From positions 1-12,995 of the forward strand of contig JBECKX010000216.1 in the NCBI GenBank assembly GCA_040235515.1: a stretch of DNA of 12,995 bases. The letters run 5' to 3'. Shown here in pieces: positions 1 to 12,995 of this stretch (the first letter of the stretch is position 1; every line of letters begins with the position of its first letter). A program made the translations under genes and the position numbers. Source of the DNA: Candidatus Zixiibacteriota bacterium (GTDB lineage: Bacteria > Zixibacteria > MSB-5A5 > CAIYYT01). The notes under the pieces were generated by a model that did not search any database, was not told the origin of the DNA, and worked only from the letters and a program-made list of their open reading frames with translations.

Positions 1-212
1 GCATGGAACAAGGCAATATCGAGACGATGGCCAAGCTCTACGAGGGAATGGACGCTCAGGAGCTTGTTCCGATTCTTTCGAATCTTGAGGACGCGCAGGT
101 CAGCGTACTTATCAGCAAAATGAAGAAGCAGAAGGCGTCTGAAGTGCTTGGCCAGATGGACCCGGCACGCGCCGCGAAGATCACCAAGTACATTATTTCA
201 ATGAATAACTAG
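1..212 (+). CDS. C-terminal part of a MotE/FlbB/YlxF-like flagellar protein (MgtE-N-like helical domain); 5'-truncated by the window
   Basis: Translation ...MAKLYEGMDAQELVPILSNLEDAQVSVLISKMKKQKASEVLGQMDPARAAKIT fits the 'Y..M....A..IL..L.....IL..M....A..IL..MDP..AA..T' pattern of this family. It sits directly upstream of fliK, the usual position. TAG stop at 210-212. Confidence 0.8.
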   Translation, partial: MEQGNIETMAKLYEGMDAQELVPILSNLEDAQVSVLISKMKKQKASEVLGQMDPARAAKITKYIISMNN

Positions 213-225
213 TGTTGATGACGCA

Positions 226-2004
226 ATGATGAACCCGATTCTTGACATACTATCGTTTGGGACGCTCCCGAATCCGATTGCCGGAGCTTCCGGAAAGGCC
301 GCATCAGGTGGTCTCGGTGGTGCATTTGCCGCACCCGGAGTGACCGATGCCGGCCGCGTTCCCTTCGGTGGTCCCGGGATCGGGATCGCGCAAAGTGGAA
401 GCTCATCCTTCGCTAAAGTGCTTGCCAACTTCTCTGATGAAGATGCCGGCATTTGCGCTGGAAGCGCTCTGCTGACAGACCTGCCGGACGGGTTAGCTGA
501 ACTCGTCGGTGGAGAGGGTGCGTCGAATCAGTTGATCGAACAACTCGAGAATCTCGGTGTTCAACCTGTTCGCCTGACCGATCATTTCGGCAGCGGGCGC
601 GGAATGAGCCATGAACAACTGGCTGATCTCGTCGATCGACTCCCGGAAGAGTCACTGAAAAGCATTTACGCAATGCTCTTCGGGCATGAGTGGAATGCGG
701 AACTTGCCGGGACGGCAGTGGGAAACGACAATTCAACGCAACCAACGGAAGTCGGTAACAAGTCGGCGGGCGAGCTTCAAATCGCCTCCAGTTCCGACAT
801 CAAGGCCAGCCTCAGCGCGGCGGGAACCCAGACGACTGCGAATCTGAATTCGGATCAAGCTATCGCCGTACTGAGTCAGGATGACTCGACTCCGGTTGTC
901 GCAGCCAGGGTGGAGTTAGCTGCTGAAGCGTCCGCCAAACCAGCCGAAGCGACTGATCTGTTGAGCCCAGCCCAGCCTCAGAAAGAAAATGATGCGGCGA
1001 TTGCTCAAGCAATCAAGTCGCAGATCTATACACTAGCAGATGAGTCCCCGCGCGCGATGCACAAGTTGGTTGATCACCTGAGCAAGTTGTTCCCGGAGCT
1101 CAAGATTGCATCTGCTGAACTCACCGCAACGGTTAGCGCAGAAGATACGGTCGAAACTAAAGACAACCCGCTCCAGAGTCGTGCTGCACTCAGCCGGCAG
1201 ACCGCGGAGGTTGAGGATTTCGACGCATTAACGCGGTTCCAGAGAACCGGCACGCAGGAGTCGACACCAACGGTTTCGCGCGGCGAGGAACGCAAAGCGC
1301 AGATCATCGATCTCAGAGCCCTGCAAAACCAAAATGTTCAGGCCGAGGCGATGTCGAATCAGAAGCCGGAAGCGGGAGCTACCGCTTCCGCCACCCCGGA
1401 GGCCGCAGCGCTTAACCAGGGTGCCACCGCTTCAGCCACACCGAAAGATTTCAAGAGCCTGGAGTTCAGCAATCGCAATGAAAAGCAATCTGATACGCAT
1501 GCGATCGACCCCGGCTCTCGCAACGACTCCAGAGTTAAATTGGAGAATCCGCAACCGGCGCGTGCGGTGAGTTCCACACCCGATGTCGAGAACTTTCGCA
1601 TCGTAATGCGTCGTGCACACATCGACGCACTGCTTCAACGCGGTGAAGTGAAGATGCAGCTCCAGCCGGAACACCTCGGATCACTCAAAATCGAACTGCA
1701 CACTCACAATTCGCAGATGTCGGCTCGGCTCGAGACCTCTTCGCATGAGGCCCGCCAACTGGTGGAAAACAACCTGCCGCAATTGCGCGAGAGTTTCGAG
1801 AAGCTCGGCATCAAGCTGGGTGAAATCAATGTCAGCGTGAGTGATGGACGAATGTCAAACCAGCAAGGTCGATTCGAACAAATGCACAGAGGAAATCTTA
1901 AACGATCTGTCGGCATAGCGCAGAGCGAGCAGGTGGAGGTGTCACCTGCGGCCTCACTTAGCTCCGCTCCGCTTTATGCCGGTGGGCTAAACATCCTGGC
2001 ATAG
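226..2004 (+). CDS. fliK: Flagellar hook-length control protein FliK
   Basis: 592 aa. Long low-complexity Ala/Ser/Thr/Gln-rich region followed by a C-terminal T3S4/Flg_hook domain (EVKMQLQPEHLGSLKIEL...ARQLVENNLPQLRESFEKLGI) and a 'LNILA' C-terminus. Upstream of flgD. Start is ATG 226 or 229. Confidence 0.92.
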   Translation: MMNPILDILSFGTLPNPIAGASGKAASGGLGGAFAAPGVTDAGRVPFGGPGIGIAQSGSSSFAKVLANFSDEDAGICAGSALLTDLPDGLAELVGGEGASNQLIEQLENLGVQPVRLTDHFGSGRGMSHEQLADLVDRLPEESLKSIYAMLFGHEWNAELAGTAVGNDNSTQPTEVGNKSAGELQIASSSDIKASLSAAGTQTTANLNSDQAIAVLSQDDSTPVVAARVELAAEASAKPAEATDLLSPAQPQKENDAAIAQAIKSQIYTLADESPRAMHKLVDHLSKLFPELKIASAELTATVSAEDTVETKDNPLQSRAALSRQTAEVEDFDALTRFQRTGTQESTPTVSRGEERKAQIIDLRALQNQNVQAEAMSNQKPEAGATASATPEAAALNQGATASATPKDFKSLEFSNRNEKQSDTHAIDPGSRNDSRVKLENPQPARAVSSTPDVENFRIVMRRAHIDALLQRGEVKMQLQPEHLGSLKIELHTHNSQMSARLETSSHEARQLVENNLPQLRESFEKLGIKLGEINVSVSDGRMSNQQGRFEQMHRGNLKRSVGIAQSEQVEVSPAASLSSAPLYAGGLNILA

Positions 2005-2021
2005 CCGAGGCAGGCAAGAAT

Positions 2022-2711
2022 ATGAATGCTCAATCAATAAGCGAAATACTCGCTCCGCAGTCGACTGAACCGGCGACTGCCAACAACAAACTCGGGAAAG
2101 AGGAATTTCTGAAGATGCTGGTAGCGCAGATGCAATACCAGAATCCGCTTGATCCGCTCAAGGATCAGGAATTCATCGCTCAGATGACCAGTTTCTCATC
2201 CCTGGAACAGTTGCAGAACATGAACGACACGCTGTCGCAGGATGTCCAATGGAACATGCTGCTGTCGCAAACGATCAGCAACACGATGGCGACCAGCCTG
2301 ATCGGGCGTGAAGTAACCGCCGGCGCGAATGTGACCACTATCACCAGCAATGGTGTCACTCCGATCAAGTTCGCCTCCGCAGCCTACGCCAAAGATGGAA
2401 CAATCACCATTCGCAATGCTGAAGGCGAGATCGTGCGAACCATTCCGGTGGCGCAGCTTCAACCCGGCAAGAACAGCATCGAATGGAATGGCAAAGACAG
2501 CGACGGAGTCGAACTTCCGCAGGGCAGTTATAGCTATGAAGTTGACCTGCGCGATACCAACGGCGGTCGGGTCGATACGGAGTCGTTTACATCCGGCGTC
2601 GTGCAGGGTGTGCGCTACTTCGATGGTCAAGCCTACCTGATGATCGATGGTGGCTACATCCCACTGACCGACGTGCAGAACGTTGAGATGCAGGAGGTGG
2701 ATGGTGGCTGA
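2022..2711 (+). CDS. flgD: Flagellar hook capping (scaffold) protein FlgD
   Basis: N-terminal LGKEEFLKMLVAQMQYQNPLDPLKDQEFIAQMTSFSSLEQLQNMN signature and a FlgD Ig-like segment (TIRNAEGEIVRTI...WNGKDSDGVELPQGSY). Confidence 0.97.
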   Translation: MNAQSISEILAPQSTEPATANNKLGKEEFLKMLVAQMQYQNPLDPLKDQEFIAQMTSFSSLEQLQNMNDTLSQDVQWNMLLSQTISNTMATSLIGREVTAGANVTTITSNGVTPIKFASAAYAKDGTITIRNAEGEIVRTIPVAQLQPGKNSIEWNGKDSDGVELPQGSYSYEVDLRDTNGGRVDTESFTSGVVQGVRYFDGQAYLMIDGGYIPLTDVQNVEMQEVDGG

Positions 2712-3072
2712 TCAATTGATCCAGACACTCACACGCATCCAGCCGGTTGGAACCACGCCAACTGACCCTGTCGGTCAACAGGCGGGCAGAGCGGCGTCGG
2801 TTACGAAACAGGACGCCGAGGGACTGACGTTCTCCCGGCACCTGAATGACAGAATCAACCGCCGCAGTATTGAACTTGACGGCGACAAGATATCGCGCCT
2901 CTCCAGCGCAGTTGATCGCGCTGCGGGTAAAGGCGCCCGCGACTCGGTAGTCCTCCTCGACGACCTGGCCGTGCTGGTGAACGTTTCCAACCGCACAGTC
3001 TTGACGGCGATCGAGACCGGCAAGATGCGGGATGGTGTCTTTACGAACATCGATTCAGTAGTTGTGGGATAG
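2704..3072 (+). CDS. Putative flagellar operon protein (TIGR02530-like), function unknown
   Basis: Motifs LTFSRHLNDRINRRSI, AAGKGARDSVVLLDDLAVLVNVSNRTVLTA and C-terminal VFTNIDSVV. Located between flgD and flgE as is typical. GTG at 2704 is preferred over the track's 2683 because GGAGGT (2693-2698) lies 5 nt upstream; ATG 2701 is an alternative. Overlaps the flgD stop. Confidence 0.88.
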   Translation: MADQLIQTLTRIQPVGTTPTDPVGQQAGRAASVTKQDAEGLTFSRHLNDRINRRSIELDGDKISRLSSAVDRAAGKGARDSVVLLDDLAVLVNVSNRTVLTAIETGKMRDGVFTNIDSVVVG

Positions 3073-3090
3073 ATGACTTATCAAATAAAC

Positions 3091-3131
3091 GCAGGCCGGA
3101 CCTCCATTGAGGAAGCCTGTTGTATGGAGGT
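3091..3131 (+). promoter_or_regulatory. Candidate cis-regulatory RNA element at the flgE ribosome-binding site (hairpin versus anti-SD alternative folds)
   Basis: Fold A: GCAGGC(3091-3096)/GCCTGT(3115-3120) outer stem, CGGA/AA internal loop, CCTC(3101-3104)/GAGG(3109-3112) inner stem, CATT loop. Fold B: ACCTCCAT(3100-3107) is the exact reverse complement of ATGGAGGT(3124-3131), which contains the SD. Confidence 0.55.
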
Positions 3132-3140
3132 AAACAAACA

Positions 3141-5063
3141 ATGTTAGCATCTCTCTTCGCCGGCGTCGCCGGACTGAGAAACCACCAGGTGAGGATGAAC
3201 GTGATCGGAAACAACGTTTCAAACATCAACACGATCGGCTTCAAGTCGGGTCGTTCGATTTTCCAGGAAGCGCTCGTGCAGAGCCTTCGTGGCGCCGGAC
3301 GTCCGTCGGCCATATCGGGTGGTACCAATCCGGTTCAGCTTGGATTGGGCATGAACGTTGCCTCGATCGACAACCTCTTCACCCAGGGCGGTCTTGAATT
3401 GACCGGTCAAATCACCGACCTCGCCATTCAGGGTAATGGATTCTTCATCCTCTCAGATGGAAGCCAGAAGTATTACACCCGCGCGGGCGCTTTCGGATTT
3501 GACGCCAACAGCTACCTGGTGAATCCGTCAAACGGTCTTTATGTACAGGGCAAGATGGCGGACGCCAATGGTGTGATCCCGGCGACCGCGACGGTTGGAA
3601 ATATCATCCTTCCGTTTGGACAGCAGGATCCCGCCAACGCCACAACCGAGGTTGCCTATGGCAATAACCTCGACGCTTCGGCCACTCGCTCCGCCGCATC
3701 GATCAGAGGCGGAACCGTACCGAGTAACGGCGTTGCCCAGGTATCCGGAACTGCGCTGAATGGTGCCGGTGGTACGCACGTTGTGACGATTACCGGTAAC
3801 CAGGCTACCCGGGCGATTCAGTCGGGTGCCAACGCGGGCGCTCCCGGTGCTCTCACCGGAAATGAGACGCTGACCAGTCTCGGTGTGACCAACGCGACCA
3901 ACCTCACTGTTTCAATCGACGGTGACAGCGATATCAATATCGAAGGCTTGACGATCAACTCGACCGTGAACGAATTAGTGTCGTTGCTCGACCTCGTGGA
4001 TGGTATCGATGTCGATATCGTCGGAGGCGAGATCCAGATCGTCCGCACCAAGGCAGGCGCCGGGTATACGATGGCTACCAACACTGCGACCGCAGGTGAC
4101 ATCGCGAATATCATCTTCGGCGCGGCGGTTGGTGCACAGTTCCAGGCTAACAACGGTACAGATCATACTTTCGTAGCTACCGACGAATTCACTCCCTCGG
4201 TGGGAGGCTCGCCGGTCACGAGTACACTCGGAATCTCCGTCAATCAGAATACCGGCCTCGCCACCGGCGTTACCGGACTGGGTGGCGGTGGTGTCACGAT
4301 TACATCGTCCGACACCGGTTTGACCGCCGGCGTCGCGCAGATTGTCACCCAGGATACCGAGAAGTCGACCTCGATCACCATCTACGACTCGCTCGGCGGT
4401 ACACACACGATGCTGACGAACTTCGTCAAGTCGCATGAGCCGAACAAGTGGTACTGGAAAGTGACGATGGGTTCCGGCGAGACAATCCAGTCCGGCGGAA
4501 GCGGCACGGTGACCTTCAACAACAACGGATCGCTGTTGCGCTGGGAATATGACGGTGGCGCCGATCAACTCACCTACGATCCGAACAACGGCGCCGGTCA
4601 GAGTCAGATCGACCTGTTTGCCGGCAACTCGGGCGAGTTCAATGGGCTGACCGGATTCTCAGGTGTCGAGACTGTCGCGGCCGTCAACCAGGATGGTTAC
4701 GGCATGGGTATCCTCGATAAAATCTCGATCGATCCGACCGGATTGATCATTGGTATTTTCACCAATGGCGTATCGCGTAACCTCGCACAGATTACGCTGG
4801 CAGACTTCAACAACGAACAGGGATTGCTCAAGTCCGGTGAGTCACTCTACCAGACCTCGGCGAACTCTGGTGAGGGTATCGAGGGAGTGGCGGGTGAAAC
4901 CGTTTCCGCAACGATCTCCTCAGGATCGCTGGAATCGGCCAACGTCGATCTGGCGCAGGAATTCACGAATATGATTATCGCACAGCGCGGATTTCAATCG
5001 AACGCGCGTGTGATCACAACCTCTGATAACATGCTCGACGAGCTGGTAAACCTCAAGAGGTAA
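3141..5063 (+). CDS. flgE: Flagellar hook protein FlgE, long form (640 aa)
   Basis: N-terminal SLFAGVAGLRNHQVRMNVIGNNVSNINTIGFK, DLAIQGNGFF, YTRAGAF, ITIYDSLG and C-terminal LESANVDLAQEFTNMIIAQRGFQSNARVITTSD. The true start is ATG 3141, with GGAGGT at 3126-3131, rather than TTG 3120. Confidence 0.97.
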   Translation: MLASLFAGVAGLRNHQVRMNVIGNNVSNINTIGFKSGRSIFQEALVQSLRGAGRPSAISGGTNPVQLGLGMNVASIDNLFTQGGLELTGQITDLAIQGNGFFILSDGSQKYYTRAGAFGFDANSYLVNPSNGLYVQGKMADANGVIPATATVGNIILPFGQQDPANATTEVAYGNNLDASATRSAASIRGGTVPSNGVAQVSGTALNGAGGTHVVTITGNQATRAIQSGANAGAPGALTGNETLTSLGVTNATNLTVSIDGDSDINIEGLTINSTVNELVSLLDLVDGIDVDIVGGEIQIVRTKAGAGYTMATNTATAGDIANIIFGAAVGAQFQANNGTDHTFVATDEFTPSVGGSPVTSTLGISVNQNTGLATGVTGLGGGGVTITSSDTGLTAGVAQIVTQDTEKSTSITIYDSLGGTHTMLTNFVKSHEPNKWYWKVTMGSGETIQSGGSGTVTFNNNGSLLRWEYDGGADQLTYDPNNGAGQSQIDLFAGNSGEFNGLTGFSGVETVAAVNQDGYGMGILDKISIDPTGLIIGIFTNGVSRNLAQITLADFNNEQGLLKSGESLYQTSANSGEGIEGVAGETVSATISSGSLESANVDLAQEFTNMIIAQRGFQSNARVITTSDNMLDELVNLKR

Positions 5064-5073
5064 CAGGTAAGCA

Positions 5074-5286
5074 ATGATTAAGGTCACTCGATTAAATGGA
5101 CAATCCCTCGTGGTAAACGCCGACCTGATTGAGTTCGTGGAGGAAATCCCCGATACAATCGTCAGCCTGACCACCGGGAAGAAGATAATGGTCAAGGAAG
5201 ACTCGGACCAAATCATCGACAAGGTTGCGGCATATCGACGCTTAAGTGGAGCGGTCGGTAACATGCCACAAGTCGAGACTTCTTAG
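5074..5286 (+). CDS. flbD: Flagellar protein FlbD (SwrD/YlzI family)
   Basis: MIKVTRLNGQSLVVNADLIEFVEEIPDTIVSLTTGKKIMVKE is the characteristic family pattern. 70 aa, directly after flgE. Confidence 0.95.
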   Translation: MIKVTRLNGQSLVVNADLIEFVEEIPDTIVSLTTGKKIMVKEDSDQIIDKVAAYRRLSGAVGNMPQVETS

Positions 5287-5322
5287 GTGCGAGGAAACGC
5301 AAACTAAGAAAGAGCGAAAGCA

Positions 5323-5910
5323 ATGCCGGATACTCAGGAACAAACAGAGGTCAACGAACCGACTCCAGTTGCGAAGAAGAGTCTGATTCCCGCGAACTCA
5401 GCTCAGCTTCTCACCAGAGTTGCAATCTTTGGAGTGATTTCGCTGGTGGCGATTTTCGCGGCCTACCTCCTGACGGTGAAGGTGCTGCGCCCGATGATGG
5501 CGCAAACCGTGACCCCGCAGGAGCAGGCGGCGGAGCAGGCCGCCAAAGCAGCGGAGGAGGAAGCTAAAGCAGTTGCAGAGGACGAGGGCGGACACGGCTC
5601 GGGCGAAGGCAGTGAGTTTTACACGATCGAAAGCATCATCGTGAACCCTGCCGGCACCGCCGGTACCCGCTATCTCTCCTGTAGCGTCAGCTTCGAATTG
5701 CCGGGCAAGGAGGATATGAAAGCCTTCGAGTCGAAGTCGGTCAAGATCAAGGATATTCTCATCACCGTCCTTTCATCCAAAACGGTGGAAGAACTGTCGG
5801 ATGTCAAGAAGCGCAACGCGATGCGCAGGCAAATCCTGGCTGTGGTCAACAAATACGTCAACCCCGCCAGGGCTACCGCCGTGTACCTGACAGACTTCGT
5901 GCTGCAGTAG
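5323..5910 (+). CDS. fliL: Flagellar basal body-associated protein FliL
   Basis: Single N-proximal TM segment, charged linker, then IIVNPAGTAGTRYL...IKDILITVLSSKTVEEL...VYLTDFVLQ. Upstream of fliM. Confidence 0.95.
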   Translation: MPDTQEQTEVNEPTPVAKKSLIPANSAQLLTRVAIFGVISLVAIFAAYLLTVKVLRPMMAQTVTPQEQAAEQAAKAAEEEAKAVAEDEGGHGSGEGSEFYTIESIIVNPAGTAGTRYLSCSVSFELPGKEDMKAFESKSVKIKDILITVLSSKTVEELSDVKKRNAMRRQILAVVNKYVNPARATAVYLTDFVLQ

Positions 5911-5980
5911 AGGAGCCGGCAAGATGAGAATAACCTATGGCATTAACATCCAGTCGGCACCAGCTGTGAGGTAGCAGGAA

Positions 5981-6973
5981 TTGGCTAAGATCTTATCACA
6001 AGACGAGATTGATGCGCTACTATCGACAGTGTCATCAAGCGATGAGCCTGAAGCGCATTCGGGTGGACAGGAAGAGTCGCTACGCTCGGTCGTAGCCTAC
6101 GACTTCAAACACCCAAACCGCGTCAGCAAAGACCAGATCAGGACGCTGGAGAACCTCCACGACAACTTCGGAGGACATCTGGCATCCACTCTCTCCGCGA
6201 TTCAGCGCGCGATGGTGGATATCGAACTGGTCAGCGTGGATCAGATCACCTACTCCGAACTGGTGATGTCGCTGGTCAATCCTTCGAACGTCTTCACGGT
6301 TTCCTGCGAGCCGCTCGAGGGTCGATGCCTCGTGGACTTCAATCCGACCCTGGCGTTCCTCTTTATCGACCGCATGTTCGGCGGAAACGGACGCATCCTC
6401 GAATCGGAGCGCGAGTTGACCGGTATCGAGCGTACGGTGCTGTCGAAGATTGCTCGCAACGTCTTCAAGGAACTCGAGAAGATCTGGGCGTCGGTGATCA
6501 AACTTGATATCCGTCAGCAGTCGTTCGAGACCAACCCGCAGTTCGTGCAAATCGTGCCGCCCGGTGAAACCGTAATCGTAATCGGCTTCCAGGTGAAGAT
6601 GATGGGTAACTCGGGTCTGTTGACGATCTGCTATCCCTACGTCACGCTCGAGCCGATCATGAAGGACCTGATCGGTAACACCTGGGTGGAGCAGTCGAAG
6701 AAGGGTGACATCGAGCAAAGCTGGTCACAGAATCTCGACAATATCCAGGATGTCTCCGCAGAGATGACAGCGCGCCTCGGCACCGCTCAATTGACGGTAA
6801 AGGATTTCCTGAACCTGCAGCTGGGGGATGTCATCGAACTCGAGCAGCGTGTCGGAACACCGCTGGAAGTGTTCGTGCGGGGTCGCCGGAAATTCTCCGC
6901 GCAGCCCGGAATAGTCGGCAAGAAGATGGGGATGAAGATAACGAGAGTACATGAAGAGGAAGCGATCCGCTGA
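5981..6973 (+). CDS. fliM: Flagellar motor switch protein FliM
   Basis: TTG start with GAGGT 8 nt upstream. N-terminal CheY-P-binding ILSQDEIDALL, YDFKHPNRVSKDQIRTL, FliG-binding DRMFGGNG, ETNPQFVQIV and a C-terminal SpoA domain. Confidence 0.97.
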   Translation: MAKILSQDEIDALLSTVSSSDEPEAHSGGQEESLRSVVAYDFKHPNRVSKDQIRTLENLHDNFGGHLASTLSAIQRAMVDIELVSVDQITYSELVMSLVNPSNVFTVSCEPLEGRCLVDFNPTLAFLFIDRMFGGNGRILESERELTGIERTVLSKIARNVFKELEKIWASVIKLDIRQQSFETNPQFVQIVPPGETVIVIGFQVKMMGNSGLLTICYPYVTLEPIMKDLIGNTWVEQSKKGDIEQSWSQNLDNIQDVSAEMTARLGTAQLTVKDFLNLQLGDVIELEQRVGTPLEVFVRGRRKFSAQPGIVGKKMGMKITRVHEEEAIR

Positions 6974-7017
6974 GGACGCGGCTCAGGGAGTGAGCGGGCG
7001 GACCAGCGCGATCTTCA

Positions 7018-7059
7018 CTACGGATGTGATAGTACGGATTTGAACGTACGGTTTTGAAA
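7018..7059 (+). repeat. Three tandem imperfect 14-bp direct repeats in the fliM-fliN spacer
   Basis: CTACGGATGTGATA (7018-7031), GTACGGATTTGAAC (7032-7045), GTACGGTTTTGAAA (7046-7059); shared core TACGGWTKTGA. Confidence 0.75.
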
Positions 7060-7086
7060 AAAGAGAATGAAGCGTAGGAGTCAAGT

Positions 7087-7719
7087 ATGCCGGATAAGCT
7101 GAGCCCTGAAGAATCAGAGAACCAGAAGAGCGATTCTCAGGACGAACTACAGCAATCGAATCCTGCGCCGGAGATGGATCAAGAATCCGGTGCGGAGGAG
7201 AGCGCTAATCAACCGGAGTCGATCCCGGCCGAAGAGCTGGAGTCTGCGGGTGGCATCGACGAAGATGTCGAACGGCAGATGCTTGAAGAACTGGCCGAAG
7301 CTGAAGCCAGCGGCCTGCTGAAAGGCGGTGGCCAGGGCGGGCCGGCAAAGTCACTCCAGGCCCTCGGCGATCATGAAGAACTGGCGGACATCGCCGACGA
7401 CCAGCCGACGGTTCAGTCGGTAGAGTTCGATCGCTATGAACGTACTGAAGCACCAGGTCAGCCTCGGAATATCGATCTTCTGCTGGATGTCCGGCTGCCG
7501 GTGGCAATCGAACTGGGTCGAACCGAGATGACAATCCACGATATCCTCGACCTCACCGCCGGCTCGGTGGTTGAACTAACCAAACTCGCCGGTGAACCGG
7601 TCGACCTGTTGGTCAACAACAAAGTGGTCGCGCGGGGCGAAGTCGTGGTGGTCGATGAGAATTTCGGATTGCGTGTAACCAGCCTCGTTTCACCGGAGGA
7701 AAGACTCAAGAGCCTTTAG
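7087..7719 (+). CDS. fliN: Flagellar motor switch protein FliN with a long acidic N-terminal extension
   Basis: C-terminal NIDLLLDVRLPVAIELGRTEMTIHDILDLTAGSVVELTKLAGEPVDLLVNNKVVARGEVVVVDENFGLRVT. SD AGGAG at 7076-7080. No CheC-like domain is visible, so FliN rather than FliY. Confidence 0.95.
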   Translation: MPDKLSPEESENQKSDSQDELQQSNPAPEMDQESGAEESANQPESIPAEELESAGGIDEDVERQMLEELAEAEASGLLKGGGQGGPAKSLQALGDHEELADIADDQPTVQSVEFDRYERTEAPGQPRNIDLLLDVRLPVAIELGRTEMTIHDILDLTAGSVVELTKLAGEPVDLLVNNKVVARGEVVVVDENFGLRVTSLVSPEERLKSL

Positions 7720-7779
7720 GCTTAGCAGATAGTCTACATAATAGAGCTCAGGTAGCTCTGGAACTGAAGAGTTTATGAG

Positions 7780-8256
7780 ATGAATAAACGAATAGGAATC
7801 GTGATTTCGCTTGTGAACGTAATCGGTACCGGCGCGCTGAGAGCACAACAGGAAGAAGTACCGGAAATCGGTGGCGACATCGGTCCCACGCTCCTGCAAC
7901 TGCTCGGCGCACTGCTGCTGATCGTCGCGTTCATATACGTCTCCGTCTGGTTGATGAAACGCTACACCAACGGACGGGTGACCGGTGGTGGTGGAATGGT
8001 CACCATCGTGGAACGCAAACACCTCACCCCCAAGCAAGCACTCTACATCCTGAAGGTTGGCGACGAGCATCTTCTTGTCGGAGCAACCGAGAACGGTATC
8101 AACAAAATCTGCGACGTGAAAATCGAAGCGCCGACGCAGCCACAGGGCACTGCCCGTTCCACCGCGCAGGAATCCAAGTTCAGCCAACTGCTGAACCAGG
8201 CAAAGAACTCGCTGATGCCGCTGATCTCCGCCAGGCATAAAGAGGTCGACGCATGA
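7780..8256 (+). CDS. fliO: Flagellar biosynthesis protein FliO/FliZ
   Basis: TM segment (LLQLLGALLLIVAFIYVSVWLMKR) followed by IVERKHLTPKQALYILKVGDEHLLVGATENGINKI, the FliO domain pattern. Lies between fliN and fliP with an ATGA overlap with fliP. Exact start uncertain. Confidence 0.9.
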   Translation: MNKRIGIVISLVNVIGTGALRAQQEEVPEIGGDIGPTLLQLLGALLLIVAFIYVSVWLMKRYTNGRVTGGGGMVTIVERKHLTPKQALYILKVGDEHLLVGATENGINKICDVKIEAPTQPQGTARSTAQESKFSQLLNQAKNSLMPLISARHKEVDA

Positions 8257-9017
8257 GCCGCCGCACACTGATTATCCTGGCTGTACTCGGATTGGTGCTG
8301 CTGAGTGGCGCAGCCCTCCACGCGCAATCGATACCATCGATCTCGATCAATGTCGGCAATGGGGAGGATAGCGGCAACTTCTCGACGACGCTGCAGATCG
8401 TTCTGCTGATGACCGTGCTGGCGTTGGCGCCATCGATCCTCGTGATGACAACCTCGTTCATCCGAATTGTCATCGTGCTTTCCTTCATGCGACAGGCGCT
8501 TGGGACAAACCAGATGCCACCTTCGCAGCTGATTCTGGGAATCTCACTGGTGATGACGATATTCGTAATGTCACCGGTAGCCGAACAGGTCAATACACAG
8601 GCGCTGCAACCGTATCTCAATGGTGAGATCACGCAGCAGGAAGCGTTCGATATCGGCACCAAACCAATCAGGCATTTCATGCTGAGTCAGACTCGTGAGA
8701 AAGACCTGGCGTTGTTCGTCAGCTTCGCCGGACTCGAAAAGCCGGAGACTCCGGAAGACCTGCCGACTCATGTCGTCGTGCCGGGGTTCATTCTCTCGGA
8801 ACTGCGAACCTCGTTTCAGATGTCGTTTATCATATTCGTGCCGTTCCTGATCATCGATATGGTGGTCGCATCGGTGCTGATGTCAATGGGTATGATGATG
8901 CTGCCGCCCGTATTGGTGGCGCTGCCGTTCAAAATCCTGCTCTTCGTGCTGGTGGATGGCTGGCACCTGATCGTGAAATCGCTGCTGCAATCATTCGCTG
9001 CAGCCGGCGGGGGCTAG
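8253..9017 (+). CDS. fliP: Flagellar export gate protein FliP
   Basis: Signal-peptide-like N-terminus, LLMTVLALAPSILVMTTSFIRIVIVLS, PFLIIDMVVASVLMSMGMMMLPP (Met-rich loop) and LPFKILLFVLVDGW. Confidence 0.98.
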   Translation: MSRRTLIILAVLGLVLLSGAALHAQSIPSISINVGNGEDSGNFSTTLQIVLLMTVLALAPSILVMTTSFIRIVIVLSFMRQALGTNQMPPSQLILGISLVMTIFVMSPVAEQVNTQALQPYLNGEITQQEAFDIGTKPIRHFMLSQTREKDLALFVSFAGLEKPETPEDLPTHVVVPGFILSELRTSFQMSFIIFVPFLIIDMVVASVLMSMGMMMLPPVLVALPFKILLFVLVDGWHLIVKSLLQSFAAAGGG

Positions 9018-9073
9018 GCGGGGGATATGGCAGGGGACTCAAGAAGAAATGAAAGACAGAGGATAGATCAACA

Positions 9074-9343
9074 ATGAGTACACAGTTTGTTCTGGCGTTG
9101 GGGAAGGAAGCAATCATTCTGACCCTCACCGCGGCGGCCCCGATGCTGCTGCTTGGCCTGATCGTCGGTTTCATCATCGCAATCTTCCAGGCGGTCACGC
9201 AGATTCACGAGATGACATTGACCTTCGTTCCAAAGATCATCGCCGTGGGAGTTGCGCTGTTGCTCTTCTTTCCCTGGATCGTGAATCTGCTGGTGGGATT
9301 CACCCAGCGGGTGTTCGAACAGATTCCGAACATGGTCGGATAG
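9074..9343 (+). CDS. fliQ: Flagellar export gate protein FliQ
   Basis: 89 aa with IAIFQAVTQIHEMTLTFVPKI and PW motifs. Confidence 0.97.
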   Translation: MSTQFVLALGKEAIILTLTAAAPMLLLGLIVGFIIAIFQAVTQIHEMTLTFVPKIIAVGVALLLFFPWIVNLLVGFTQRVFEQIPNMVG

Positions 9344-9409
9344 GGGAGGGCGCTCTGTCGCTCTCGTGTAACCCGCTGCCAATCTGCCTCTTAGCTTCAG
9401 CGGAAGATC

Positions 9410-9446
9410 GGGAGTAATTTCACCCCCGGCAGGGAAATATCTTCCC
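9410..9446. promoter_or_regulatory. Candidate enhancer-binding-protein sites (UAS) for the sigma-54 promoter
   Basis: Dyad GGGAA-ATATC-TTCCC (9432-9446) and a weaker dyad GGGAGTAATTTCACCC (9410-9425). Centres are about 21 bp apart, at roughly -110 and -131 from the predicted start site. Confidence 0.45.
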
Positions 9447-9480
9447 AAACCCGATTTCAATCAATCCATCGAAGTTTGCT

Positions 9481-9493
9481 TAACTTGTTGTAA
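9481..9493 (-). promoter_or_regulatory. IHF-like binding site
   Basis: The minus strand reads TTACAACAAGTTA, matching the CAA-N4-TTR core of WATCAANNNNTTR, in an AT-rich patch between the UAS and the promoter. A second near match is AATCAATCCATCG at 9459-9471 on the + strand. Confidence 0.4.
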
Positions 9494-9521
9494 GTAAAAG
9501 GGATAGGCGCTCCGTTTCGAA

Positions 9522-9538
9522 CTGGCACAAAGGTTGCA
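9522..9538 (+). promoter_or_regulatory. Sigma-54 (RpoN) -24/-12 promoter upstream of fliR
   Basis: CTGGCACAAAGGTTGCA versus consensus YTGGCACG-N4-TTGCW (one mismatch). GG at 9524-9525 and GC at 9536-9537 have the exact spacing. Predicted start site near 9549, followed by SD GAGGAG (9555-9560). Confidence 0.85.
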
Positions 9539-9568
9539 ATTACAGTTCTCCGAAGAGGAGAATTGTAG

Positions 9569-10363
9569 TTGGGACACAGTGAATTGATACTTGGATTGAC
9601 ACTCGATAACATCGTCGCCTACCTGCTGACCACATTCCGGGTAGGTGGATTGCTGATCGCCGCTCCCATCTTCGGACAGCGCTCCGTTCCCGCACAGTTG
9701 AAGATCATGCTGGCCCTGGTCCTGGGTTACTTCCTGTTTCCGCTGATCGGCAGCCAGGAACTGGCCATCGACCCCGGCCTTTTCCCGATCGCCCTGGTAG
9801 CGGCGCGCGAGCTGCTTTTCGGCCTGATCATCGGGTTCTTCTTCCAGATCATCTTCATCGCCGTCGAATTCGGCGGTGGCATCCTCGGTTACCAGATCGG
9901 TTTTGCGCTGGTCAACATCGTCGACCCGAGCACTTCCAACAGTGTGCCGATTATCGGACAGTTCAAGCTGATAGTCGCGACACTGATCTTTTTCGGGATC
10001 GACGGACATCATGTGGTCCTGCAGGCACTCTTTGAGTCGTTCAAGTTCGTGCCGCTCGGTCACGTGACGTTCCACGCCGAGATACTCGATCATATCGTCA
10101 CCTTCGCCGGTGCAGTTTTCATCATCGGCGTCAAGATAGCCGCGCCGATTCTTGTCACGCTCTTCATCACTGATGTGTGTCTTGGAATCGTTTCGCGCAC
10201 GATGCCGCAGATGAACATGTTCATCGTCGGCTTCCAGGTAAAGATCGGTGCGGGTCTGCTGATGATCGCGCTCGCGCTGCCATTCTTCCAGTACATGTTC
10301 ACCAAAGTATTCAACCAGATGAGTATCGATGCCTTCGATCTCACCAGAGGCTTCGCGAGTTAG
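9569..10363 (+). CDS. fliR: Flagellar export gate protein FliR
   Basis: TTG start 8 nt after GAGGAG. Hydrophobic 264 aa with RVGGLLIAAPIFG, ELLFGLIIG, GYQIGFALVNIVDP, DGHH and SRTMPQMNMFIVGFQVKI. Confidence 0.97.
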   Translation: MGHSELILGLTLDNIVAYLLTTFRVGGLLIAAPIFGQRSVPAQLKIMLALVLGYFLFPLIGSQELAIDPGLFPIALVAARELLFGLIIGFFFQIIFIAVEFGGGILGYQIGFALVNIVDPSTSNSVPIIGQFKLIVATLIFFGIDGHHVVLQALFESFKFVPLGHVTFHAEILDHIVTFAGAVFIIGVKIAAPILVTLFITDVCLGIVSRTMPQMNMFIVGFQVKIGAGLLMIALALPFFQYMFTKVFNQMSIDAFDLTRGFAS

Positions 10364-10366
10364 GCT

Positions 10367-11443
10367 ATGGCGGAAGAATCCTTCCAGGAAAAAACGGAAC
10401 AACCAACCCCGAAACGGATTCGGGACGCCCGCGAGAAGGGGCAGGTTGCCAAGTCGATGGAAGTCTCCTCGGTGGTGATCATGCTGGCCGGTATCGGCTC
10501 GCTGGTCGTGATGGGATCATACACGACCGGACAGTTGAAGGGCATGTTTTCGTGGCTGTTCCAGAGCAACAGCTACCAGATGATTCAGCCCGAGTCGATC
10601 AGTCATTTCATGAACCAGGTCGGATTCATCTTTGCCAGATCAATCGCGCCGATCGTAATCGTGCTCGTTGTCGCGGCGGCCGGCGTCTCATTCCTGCAGG
10701 TTGGCCCGCTGGTCTCCACGCAGGCGATTGAGCCGAAGGCGGAGAAGCTCGACATCGTGAAGGGGATGAAGCGGCTCTTCAGCCCGCGGGCACTCTTCAC
10801 GGCCGGGCGTGATGTCATCAAACTTGGAATCATCGCAACGATCTGCTGGTTCGCCATCCAGGCCGAAGTGCCGACGATGCTCAGCTTTCCGGACATGGGT
10901 GTGCAGGAGATCGCCGGCTCGATGACCGGAATCGCAATCAAGATATCGCTGAAGATCCTTGCCGCCCTGATAGTCATCGCGGCCCTCGACTACGCCTACC
11001 AGAAGTATGACTACATCAAGGGACTCAAGATGACCAAGCAGGAGCTGAAGGAAGAAATGAAGCATACGGAGGGTAACCCGCAGGTCAAGAGCCGGGTCAG
11101 GTCGATTCAACGCGAGATGTCACGCAAGCGCATGATGGCGGATGTCCCCAAGGCGGATGTCGTCGTCACCAACCCGACTCATATCGCGGTAGCTCTCAAG
11201 TATGACACAGACAAGATGGATGCGCCGATCGTGCTCGCCAAGGGTGAACGACTGATCGCAGAGGCGATTAAGAGGATCGCCGCCGAAGCGGGTGTTCCGA
11301 TAGTCGAGAATAAACCACTCGCCCGTGCACTGTTCAAGACGGTTGAAATCGGCATGCAGATCCCGGCTGATCTCTACAAGGGTGTCGCCGAAGTGCTGGC
11401 ATACGTCTACAGCCTCAAAGATAAAGGCAGGAAGACTAACTGA
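10367..11443 (+). CDS. flhB: Flagellar export substrate-specificity switch protein FlhB
   Basis: EKTEQPTPKRIRDAREKGQVAKS, LKMTKQELKEEMKHTEGNPQVK, autocleavage motif NPTH, ENKPLARALF and AEVLAYVY. Confidence 0.98.
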   Translation: MAEESFQEKTEQPTPKRIRDAREKGQVAKSMEVSSVVIMLAGIGSLVVMGSYTTGQLKGMFSWLFQSNSYQMIQPESISHFMNQVGFIFARSIAPIVIVLVVAAAGVSFLQVGPLVSTQAIEPKAEKLDIVKGMKRLFSPRALFTAGRDVIKLGIIATICWFAIQAEVPTMLSFPDMGVQEIAGSMTGIAIKISLKILAALIVIAALDYAYQKYDYIKGLKMTKQELKEEMKHTEGNPQVKSRVRSIQREMSRKRMMADVPKADVVVTNPTHIAVALKYDTDKMDAPIVLAKGERLIAEAIKRIAAEAGVPIVENKPLARALFKTVEIGMQIPADLYKGVAEVLAYVYSLKDKGRKTN

Positions 11444-12995
11444 TGAACCGCTTCAAGGGACAGACAGACGTATTCCTCGCCATCGCAGTGGTTGGCGTGA
11501 TCGCGGTGCTGATTATTCCGGTACCGCCATCAATGCTCGATCTGTTGCTGGCGGCGAATATCTCACTCTCCCTGATCATTCTGCTGGGGACACTCTACCT
11601 GAAGCGCCCCCTCGATTTCTCGGTGTTTCCCGGACTGCTGCTCGTGATTACCCTCTTCAGGTTGTCACTCAACGTGGCGTCAACGCGGCTGATCCTCGGT
11701 GAGGGTTATGCCGGTGCGGTGATCAACTCCTTCGGCAACTTTGTCGTCAAAGGCAACTACGTCGTAGGTTTCATCATCTTCATCATCCTGGTCGTGATCC
11801 AGTTCGTGGTGATCACGAAGGGTGCGGGACGAATCTCGGAAGTCGCGGCACGCTTCACCCTCGACGCGATGCCCGGTAAACAGATGGCAATCGATGCCGA
11901 TCTGAACGCCGGTCTGATCAGCGAAGATGAGGCGCGCACGCGTCGTCGTGAAATCACCCAGGAAGCGGATTTCTACGGTGCGATGGACGGTGCCTCCAAG
12001 TTCGTACGCGGTGACGCCATCGCCGGTATCCTGATCACCCTCACCAACGTGATCGGCGGATTGGTTATCGGTATGGCGCAGCAGGGAATGCCGATCGGCG
12101 AGGCCCTGCGCACCTATACACTCCTTTCGGTGGGTGATGGTCTGGTTACCCAGATCCCGGCGCTGATCGTTGCCACCTCCGCAGGTATTCTCGTAACCCG
12201 CGCCGCAGGCGAGTCGAATCTCGGCGATGAAATCACCAAGCAGATGACGCTGCAGCCGAAGGCGCTGGCGATTGCCGCCGGGCTCGTGTTCCTCCTGGGG
12301 ATCGTACCCGGATTGCCCTTCATTCCGTTCTCGGTATTCAGCGTGGTGGTGGGTGTTGCAGCGGTACTGACCATGCAGGCGGCAAAGCGGCGGGAGGAAG
12401 AAGCTCGGCAGAAGCAAGTCACTCTCAAGCCGAAAGAAGAAAAGACACCGACGCAACAAGCCGAGGAAGCACTCCACCTCGATACACTCGAAGTCGAGAT
12501 CGGTTATGGGCTGATCCCGCTGGTTGATGTCGAACAGGGGGGCGACCTGCTCGAGCGAATTGCGACGATGCGCAAACAGCTCGCTCAGGATCTCGGAATC
12601 GTCGTGCCGCCGGTGCGCATCCGCGACAATATGCAACTCAAGCCCAACCTCTATGAAGTCAAGCTGAAGGGGATCTCCATCGCTGAGTATGAGCTGATGG
12701 TCGATCACTTCCTCGCCATCGATCCGGGGCACATCGAAGACGACATCGAGGGCTTCAAAACACAGGAACCCGCCTTCGGCATGCGTGCCAAGTGGATCAT
12801 CCAAAACTACAAAGAACTCGCCGAGATGAAAGGCTACACCGTGGTCGAGCCGGCTGCGGTGATGGCGACTCACCTCACCGAGGTGATCAAGAATCACGCC
12901 GCCGAACTCTTTACGCGCCAGGATGTCAAGAACCTGGTAGAGCGTGTGCGCATGGAAGCGCCGGCAGCGGTTGAAGATGTGGTCGGTGAGGTCGT
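11443..12995 (+). CDS. flhA: Flagellar export apparatus protein FlhA; 3'-truncated by the window
   Basis: Not in the ORF track because there is no stop in the window. ATG 11443 overlaps the flhB stop (TGATG). Manual translation: MNRFKGQTDVFLAIAVVGVIAVLIIPVP...DFSVFPGLLLVITLFRLSLNVASTRLIL...ITKGAGRISEVAARFTLDAMPGKQMAIDADLNAG...DFYGAMDGASKFVRGDA...EIGYGLIPLVD. Confidence 0.98.
   Translation, partial: MNRFKGQTDVFLAIAVVGVIAVLIIPVPPSMLDLLLAANISLSLIILLGTLYLKRPLDFSVFPGLLLVITLFRLSLNVASTRLILGEGYAGAVINSFGNFVVKGNYVVGFIIFIILVVIQFVVITKGAGRISEVAARFTLDAMPGKQMAIDADLNAGLISEDEARTRRREITQEADFYGAMDGASKFVRGDAIAGILITLTNVIGGLVIGMAQQGMPIGEALRTYTLLSVGDGLVTQIPALIVATSAGILVTRAAGESNLGDEITKQMTLQPKALAIAAGLVFLLGIVPGLPFIPFSVFSVVVGVAAVLTMQAAKRREEEARQKQVTLKPKEEKTPTQQAEEALHLDTLEVEIGYGLIPLVDVEQGGDLLERIATMRKQLAQDLGIVVPPVRIRDNMQLKPNLYEVKLKGISIAEYELMVDHFLAIDPGHIEDDIEGFKTQEPAFGMRAKWIIQNYKELAEMKGYTVVEPAAVMATHLTEVIKNHAAELFTRQDVKNLVERVRMEAPAAVEDVVGEV

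Follow-up and report, generated by a model that had tools for sequence, protein, structure and literature searches.

We have analysed a stretch of 12,995 nucleotides from a Candidatus Zixiibacteriota bacterium (GCA_040235515.1, contig JBECKX010000216.1, positions 1-12,995, forward strand; the whole stretch is referred to here as the window), in which a gene of the TIGR02530 family and a small RNA hairpin, hairpin 1, lie between the flagellar genes flgD and flgE. As judged by comparing sequences, hairpin 1 is a genuine structure and belongs to a widespread RNA motif, without a match in Rfam, of which it is one copy. The motif covaries, it is gained and lost jointly with the TIGR02530 gene, and extra copies are found at other flagellar genes. 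Gene and hairpin probably form a genuine, apparently undescribed protein-plus-RNA module that sets the amounts of flagellar parts, and it seems quite likely that the TIGR02530 protein recognises the hairpin. We propose, with confidence a little short of even, that flagellar mRNAs have in this protein a dedicated factor that recognises RNA at a specific site, most likely a colicin-like BECR endoribonuclease, with the hairpin as its site; that it actually cuts the hairpin we consider nearly an even prospect.

A covarying hairpin upstream of flgE

The original prediction had drawn hairpin 1 as GCAGGC-CGGA-CCTC-CATT-GAGG-AA-GCCTGT at 3091-3120, and all of its coordinates are confirmed in the sequence. 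It is the minimum-energy fold of that segment (-12.7 kcal/mol, z -1.98), with five of 200 shuffled sequences equally good; by itself it is thus only modestly stable, and the argument that it is real rests on comparison across loci. Loci of the TIGR02530 gene were taken from named genome records, relatives, metagenomes and the phylum of genome G062, and the phyla of G061 and G063 were searched for loci anchored on flgD. In a first scan by pattern, 132 of 147 loci had the hairpin, as did three of 441 shuffles. A refined scan of those loci that have a located flgE start found it in 167 of 173 distinct spacers between gene and flgE, compared with 12 of 865 shuffles, and it is present by inspection in 19 of 19 loci fetched later. 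The six misses are L058, L137, L146, L147, L154 and L159, and in L058 the motif sits within the read-through end of the TIGR02530 gene. Carriers, according to their source names, include Paenibacillus, Saccharibacillus, Thermacetogeniaceae, Dehalococcoidia, Anaerolineae, Miltoncostaeaceae, Bdellovibrionaceae and Balneolales. A search of the window's own genome with motif model R1 returned hairpin 1 as the best and sole match (E 0.00165).

Conservation across phyla together with covariation, as anticipated by the original prediction, is borne out by a MAFFT alignment of 101 distinct copies (alignment A2, cores scoring at least 24 with short loops; L057, L085, L137 and L143 were dropped). The covariation score is 0.382, against 0.170 when shuffled and 0.08-0.131 for slid pairings, with none of 500 shuffles reaching the observed value and 10 of the 11 base pairs changing on both sides; the copies were chosen with a pairing-aware pattern, which favours covariation, and related sequences are counted many times in these figures. 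Two stems around an internal loop are confirmed, but the loop is a 3x1 GGH/R loop rather than the CGGA/AA loop first proposed, since C3097 and A3114 covary: across the 167 loci this position is U-G in 46, U-A in 44, C.A in 28, C-G in 25 and G-C in 19. The loop proper consists of an invariant GG followed by H (A in 126, U in 21, C in 20) facing a single purine (A in 136, G in 31). The inner stem begins with a C-G pair, and the apical loop ranges from 3 to about 38 nucleotides.

Several known RNAs were compared with hairpin 1 and set aside. CsrA binding sites have an invariant GGA in an apical loop; in hairpin 1 the third base varies among A, U and C, in the numbers just given, and the loop is internal. 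Kink-turns have tandem G.A/A.G pairs following a 3-nucleotide bulge; here the required A positions vary and the inner stem pairs in a fixed register. Rfam 15 gives no match in the window at the gathering threshold, and at the E-value level the best weak match is ncr982 on the opposite strand (23.8 compared with 50 bits), which we regard as a chance likeness of hairpin plus Shine-Dalgarno region. Searches of 20 other loci against Rfam gave three weak matches, all far under threshold. The Termite-flg model (RF01729) has no match at the element in 10 genome searches, and the sequences of its source alignment differ.

A number of individual loci deserve mention. L037 (record MT835480.1, filed as a phage) is a bacterial fliI-fliK-flgD-flgE-mot-fliM operon whose motif is a variant with a UAC/GUA stem. 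The TIGR02530 gene of L153 (G006:C4:129632-129884) is split over two frames with the motif intact, reflecting either an assembly error or a recent break. In L232-L234 an extra repeated hairpin-like sequence of variable length lies between the gene stop and the motif, and in RNA data for L232 one contig spans the motif in four runs from four studies, these being assembled contigs that are uninformative on transcript ends or levels.

A second hairpin follows hairpin 1 in 56 of the 167 loci, with a 12-nucleotide loop of the form N-GA-HY-GA-YW-GA-N that is closed by C-G in 50. All seven of its stem pairs covary in an alignment of two-hairpin copies (A3, 40 of 48 used). GA is present at loop positions 2-3 and 10-11 in all 56 loops, which were chosen on that pattern, and an additional middle GA is present in 53. 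A k-loop is a stem followed by GA...GA flanking a loop; the pattern here matches, but the loops were preselected, and the non-standard pairs lie beyond covariation testing.

It was further predicted that hairpin 1 (fold A) competes with a second fold (fold B) in which its centre pairs with the Shine-Dalgarno sequence of flgE. The stretch ACCTCCAT at 3100-3107 is indeed the exact complement of ATGGAGGT at 3124-3131, and fold B exists, but it is weaker than fold A in the window (-13.4 versus -15.3 kcal/mol). For the segment 3085-3145 fold B costs 1.9 kcal/mol more and accounts for 10% of the ensemble as against 62% for fold A; the two are about equal for 3088-3135, and fold B falls to 0.6% for 3070-3160. 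Half of the 8-base-pair match, CCUC, follows from pairing with GAGG within the inner stem itself. Among the 167 loci a helix of 8 base pairs is found in the window only, and one of at least 7 base pairs in seven. The motif ends at least 18 nucleotides ahead of the flgE start codon in every locus (median 45, and within 30 in 72 loci) and never reaches the Shine-Dalgarno sequence. Enforcing the motif raises predicted Shine-Dalgarno accessibility by more than 0.2 in 26 of the 167 loci and by less than 0.05 in 110, the window being among the latter if the folded segment takes in 15 nucleotides of coding sequence; the 26 are concentrated in the window's family (L001, L028-L036) and L158-L166. Most copies inside fliK or ahead of flgG have an inner stem with CCG, which is not complementary to a Shine-Dalgarno sequence.

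As a general mechanism the switch is not supported, with a full match in the window alone and a predicted accessibility gain above 0.2 in about one locus in six, and it is not part of the conserved core. It is possible as a local device in the window's family and in L158-L166, and the pairing option in the window's family may exert a further, local influence on translation. For six of seven loci folded from L158-L167, alternative folds are predicted to exceed the motif in stability by 2-9 kcal/mol. The 5' strand of hairpin 1 has a complement further downstream in the flgE leaders of this group, a CCAGUUCA-like stretch kept with G-U changes, which may form a lineage-specific alternative fold that would hide the invariant GG.

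Association of the motif with the TIGR02530 gene and with other flagellar genes

Model R1, built before 60 flgD-anchored loci were fetched, matches the flgE leader in all 37 of those that bear the gene and in none of the 23 that do not, as expected if the motif tracks the gene; training genomes account for two of the 37, E values reach 0.44 and 0.92 in the weakest matches, and two of the gene-less loci have no flgE in the stretch. The gene was found nowhere in the 23 genomes with gene-less loci. In a quick tree of FlgE N-termini the gene-less L204 is sister to the gene-bearing L225 (Shimodaira-Hasegawa-like approximate likelihood ratio support 99) and L213/L216 are sister to eight gene-less loci (98); at least three changes are forced on this tree. 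The gene-less loci L221, L222 and L227 keep a GGGC/GCCC outer stem and a second stem, and both conserved loops are gone from them. L154 is the sole gene-bearing locus without a recognisable motif, and its protein has lost the conserved histidine H46.

In one sample of Bdellovibrionaceae, 169 of 182 genomes have the gene, and it also occurs in records from Bacillota, Chloroflexota, Actinomycetota and Balneolales; the controls Escherichia coli, Bacillus subtilis, Caulobacter and Thermotoga have flgD without it. In the window's class, 38 of 41 gene-bearing genomes have an R1 match beside the gene and the other three have the motif by pattern. Gene-less genomes of this class and of the phylum of G062 mostly have no flgD either (three of 42 have it) and so provide no test of co-occurrence. 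Thirteen secondary R1 matches in the class (E 0.03-0.94) were taken as chance, 12 of them overlapping open reading frames of at least 110 codons that to the eye did not seem flagellar and one, L194, being intergenic.

The original prediction treated the module as a strictly local one; other lineages have it as a regulon of several sites, with copies at flgG, a second flgE, a flagellin-like gene and fliK. A model of the two-hairpin form, R2, identified 17 extra copies at E below 0.001, all in gene-bearing genomes: nine between two rod genes before flgG (three of the nine checked with NCBIfam), one before a second flgE, one before a flagellin-like gene and six within a conserved open reading frame of 63-74 codons. 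The best R2 match in 34 gene-less flagellated genomes has an E value of 0.038. With model R1, 53 long loci gave 21 secondary matches, all 21 on the sense strand and about 110-220 nucleotides into the open reading frame before flgD, which is FliK by Pfam in eight of eight tested. Together with four more, these make 25 sites inside fliK that are distributed over all three frames (18, 3 and 2, with two unassigned) and whose stems covary, so that what is kept is the RNA and not the peptide.

The 63-74-codon reading frame with its internal two-hairpin motif occurs in six genomes of the phylum of G061 (L256:782-970, L257, L259, L262, L264 and L269). It has no Pfam match in the two cases tested and lies upstream of an HTH_17 gene-flgB-flgC block, in five of the six behind a GCCGA box that we take to be sigma-28-like; its transcript is possibly a late decoy or a dual-function RNA. 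In L270 (G368) and L271 (G534) we note a duplicated flgE that has its own leader copy without a second copy of the gene, and a flagellin-like gene with a full two-hairpin leader.

The TIGR02530 protein and its proposed role

The window gene scores above the curated cut-off for TIGR02530 (88.4 bits, cut-off 83.2) and above that for PF12611 (28.6 bits, cut-off 21.1). In an AlphaFold2 model its N-terminal 35 residues are disordered and are followed by a compact alpha/beta domain, with a predicted local distance difference test score of about 90 over residues 41-122, that comprises helices 45-54 and 60-76 and strands 80-85, 88-93, 98-104 and 118-121. In a wide structural search, ParE, HigB, RelE and YafQ account for most of the first 20 chains listed, with CdiA-CT, RegB and BrnT lower; the best match has Z 5.3 (root mean square deviation 3.2, 69 residues aligned) and RegB has Z 3.9, all values being under 8. 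The homodimer prediction score is 0.31, for which the mark is 0.42. Among 150 aligned proteins S44 is kept in 150, H46 in 149, R50 in 148, R54 in 138 and T101 in 150. The first four of these are on the first helix and T101 is on the last meander strand; they correspond to BECR active sites by topology, not by superposition of side chains; the C-terminal segment is as conserved as the basic helix.

The protein had been likened to DUF4258 and RelE-type BECR proteins. The predicted fold is BECR-like, and 52 of the 150 family members match DUF4258 (PF14076) weakly (best E 0.0035), but this does not extend to the window protein. In the part of a recent preprint available to us, colicin-like BECR RNases have their active site on a helix preceding the alpha-beta core and on the terminal strand, and DUF4258 is assigned to them (bioRxiv 10.64898/2026.08.28.747851); on the strength of the predicted model we treat a place for the TIGR02530 protein in this group as a lead, not as membership. 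Searches with the window protein gave nothing credible among the sequences of solved structures, no usable match outside the TIGR02530 family in the ESM Atlas, and no relative in viral contigs and plasmids, the sole phage record being a bacterial flagellar operon. TIGR02530 is mentioned in one work found in the literature, whose available text gives this name to gp136 of phage G (bioRxiv 10.1101/2024.12.16.628780). We do not accept gp136 (L157:7846-8193) as a family member, there being no NCBIfam TIGR02530 match and no motif nearby; it has a similar H-x3-R-x3-R helix pattern.

In the action that we propose, the TIGR02530 protein would bind the internal loop through its S-H-R-R-T face and cut in or beside that loop. 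A cut between its own gene and flgE would free the hook message from what precedes it in the operon, and in many lineages the second hairpin with its GA-repeat loop could cap or protect the freed message. Where fliK has a copy, about 40-70 codons from its start, cutting would do away with the message of the low-copy ruler and would excise the segment containing fliK, flgD and the protein's own gene, resulting in negative autoregulation. On balance the operon would then yield more of the high-copy axial subunits FlgE and FlgG in relation to their neighbours. A more far-reaching version, which we advance tentatively and doubt somewhat more than we believe, is that flagella acquired an mRNA-processing enzyme of their own early in the history of bacteria, through domestication of a ribonuclease of toxin type (colicin-like BECR). 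This enzyme would cut its conserved hairpin in every place to which evolution has moved it: ahead of the genes for hook, distal rod and some flagellins, within fliK, and in a short transcript from a sigma-28-like promoter, possibly a late decoy. The hook-to-ruler ratio, and thereby hook length and timing, would be set in this way in several phyla that include no classic model organism.

A number of observations weigh against this proposed role of the protein. The window and its class have no second hairpin and only a single site: there is no sense-strand match above 7.4 bits in window 1-3000 that would indicate a fliK copy, there are none in fliK in 20 stretches from relatives of the same class, and no copy precedes the organism's own flgF and flgG, so that the multi-site argument comes from other lineages. 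Among the 25 fliK sites, the 18 that share a frame look like close kin. The loss events are few and related loci are not independent, and joint loss could have come about through a deletion that relaxed selection on the spacer for another reason. L194 (G025:C4:121429-121459) is a well-formed intergenic copy of hairpin 1, with an E value of 0.29 that is at chance level, in a genome in which neither the TIGR02530 gene nor flgD was found. As to the protein, Z values below 8 may reflect only a common arrangement of elements, and ParE, which is not an RNase, ties for first rank; Foldseek finds the same kinds of chain with none under E 0.2 (best 0.21); and the window protein has no DUF4258 match, falling below the Pfam cut-off.

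The chief alternative, rather unlikely in our view, is that a catalytically silent BECR-fold protein clamps hairpin 1, either freeing the Shine-Dalgarno sequence as an activator or shielding the message from decay. The co-occurrence data fit this equally well, as do the accessibility gains in the window's family and L158-L166, the stable alternative folds of L158-L167, and the 72 loci in which the motif ends close to the start codon. The 110 loci with little or no predicted effect do not fit, the copies in fliK and in the small reading frame lie at a great distance from any start codon, where ribosomes would pass over them, and the near-invariant histidine would suit catalysis. Sites within coding regions would fit cutting better than control of initiation; binding accounts for spacer sites and local anti-Shine-Dalgarno folds but not for the fliK sites, and cutting would cover spacer and coding-region sites with one rule, to the benefit of the high-copy subunits as against ruler and cap. 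We also think it unlikely that another factor, such as a general RNase, CsrA or, for the second hairpin, an L7Ae-type protein, reads the motif while the gene travels along for some other purpose, for example as an assembly chaperone. The genome does encode CsrA, GGA forms the loop in 126 of 167 copies, the loop of the second hairpin has a GA pattern like that of a k-loop, and the conservation of the C-terminal segment matches that of the basic helix; against this, the U or C at the third loop base in 41 of 167 copies and the internal position of the loop are unlike CsrA sites, the motif decays upon loss of the gene while flagella remain, and the predicted fold of the protein resembles RNA enzymes.

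Two further explanations appear less probable still. It is very unlikely that the hairpin is an address label near the 5' ends of messages for exported parts, which the protein would bring to the export gate through its C-terminal segment. FlgE, FlgG, FliK and flagellin are all flagellar export substrates, they comprise all of the identified flagellar genes with a copy, and the copies are at or near 5' ends, but FlgB, FlgC, FlgF, FlgD and FlgK have no copy in genome-wide searches, the control organisms manage without the gene, and nothing links the protein to the export gate. Most improbable is a protein-independent switch in which ribosomes finishing the upstream gene melt hairpin 1 and toggle Shine-Dalgarno pairing by translational coupling. 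The hairpin touches or overlaps the stop codon in L007, L013, L037, L053, L055 and L119, and the arrangement in L058 also fits; the distance from stop to motif nevertheless ranges from -3 to 178 nucleotides, the invariant unpaired GG would be unneeded, and pairing with the Shine-Dalgarno sequence is not general.

Gene order in the window and comparison with known systems

The position of the TIGR02530 gene between flgD and flgE follows from the open reading frame list and Pfam, and its stop codon (TAG, 3070-3072) is separated from hairpin 1 by 18 nucleotides. No sigma-70-like promoter was found on the sense strand within window 1900-5400, and no terminator at the motif. Further downstream, at 5074-5910, flbD/swrD is followed directly by fliL without motA-motB between them.

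Coordinates of the flagellar genes, hairpin 1 and related elements in the window
Feature	Position	Strand	Remarks
fliK (hook-length ruler)	226..2004	+	Pfam PF02120
flgD (hook cap)	2022..2711	+	Pfam PF03963, open reading frame list; stop overlaps start of TIGR02530 gene
TIGR02530 / PF12611 gene, 122 amino acids	2704..3072	+	GTG start 2704; in-frame ATG at 2701
S44, H46, R50, R54 codons, first helix	2833..2865	+	candidate RNA-binding or catalytic set; 150 aligned proteins
T101 codon, last strand of three-stranded meander (strand 98-104)	3004..3006	+	150/150 aligned proteins
C-terminal segment FTNIDSVVV	3037..3063	+	portion modelled by PF12611; T114 in 148, I116 in 148, D117 in 150 of 150
Hairpin 1 (conserved motif)	3091..3120	+	outer stem 3091-3096/3115-3120; inner stem 3101-3104/3109-3112
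Loops of hairpin 1	GGA 3098-3100 opposite A3113; apical loop 3105-3108	+	covarying position C3097.A3114; apical loop variable
Anti-Shine-Dalgarno stretch (fold B), ACCTCCAT	3100..3107	+	lineage-limited option, outside conserved motif
Shine-Dalgarno region of flgE, ATGGAGGT	3124..3131	+	GGAGG 3126-3130; read from sequence
flgE (hook subunit)	3141..5063	+	ATG 3141; Pfam and NCBIfam matches

To our knowledge, it is an open question how about a hundred hook subunits and yet few caps and rulers can come from a single long flagellar operon. A dedicated protein-RNA pair would answer this question of dosage directly, and would give a testable function to a flagellar gene listed as being of unknown function, on the scale of a 30-nucleotide RNA and a 10-kDa domain. 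If the protein does cut, a toxin fold would here serve a housekeeping purpose, and the module would be a compact, programmable tool for RNA processing.

Small dedicated endoribonucleases that read a short sequence-plus-structure RNA signal are known in RegB of phage T4 and in Cas6/Csy4 of CRISPR systems. Their targets and purpose differ from those of the TIGR02530 module, RegB inactivating messages at GGAG and Cas6 having another fold. The CsrA-FliW-flagellin switch and FlbT are similar in that a protein acting on mRNA controls a high-copy flagellar subunit, but CsrA reads GGA in apical loops and at Shine-Dalgarno sequences, whereas here the third base varies, the loop is internal, and the targets are hook, rod and ruler genes.

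Within the literature covered as full text, which takes in few subscription journals, neither the motif nor any function of the TIGR02530 family was found described, and Flagellar_put is entered as 'function unknown' in the available part of a 2026 survey (PMC13277936). The main texts of four RNA-motif surveys, searched by term only, contain neither 'flg' nor 'hook'. Three candidate RNAs near flagellar genes, HMP2_11826, HMP2_12528 and HMP2_4503, are given by Fremin and Bhatt 2021, and the motif may already be listed there or in the supplements of PMC11109978. Termite-flg (RF01729) and flg-Rhizobiales (RF01736) are likewise candidate cis-regulatory RNAs ahead of flagellar genes, with no known ligand; from the portion of their description consulted (PMC2864571), sequence and structure differ from those of hairpin 1, and they have no match at the element. 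In Campylobacter jejuni, RNase processing of the flgE message also forms part of flagellar control, but CJnc230/FlmE is, in the sections of the report at hand (PMC11187230), a 3' small RNA cut by the general RNases III, Y and PNPase, without a 5' motif or dedicated protein.

Two further systems come close to the module. Colicin-like BECR RNases, including DUF4258/Ntox49, appear to share with the modelled TIGR02530 protein an extra helix before the alpha-beta core, conserved histidine and arginine residues on that helix, and a conserved residue on the terminal strand; those described in the available text (bioRxiv 10.64898/2026.08.28.747851), whose main text as seen contains neither 'flagell' nor 'PF12611', are conflict toxins directed mostly at tRNA, whereas the TIGR02530 protein is in a housekeeping operon with no adjacent immunity gene. 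In the selective processing and stabilisation of the cip-cel operon (PMC4423207), as in the scheme proposed here, intergenic processing sites and stem-loops set the ratio of subunits made from one polycistronic message; the supplements of that work on processing sites do not contain 'flagellar', 'hook' or 'flgE', and its available text names no dedicated operon-encoded nuclease and no conserved motif, whereas in the flagellar operons a protein specific to one family is inherited along with an internal loop of specific sequence.

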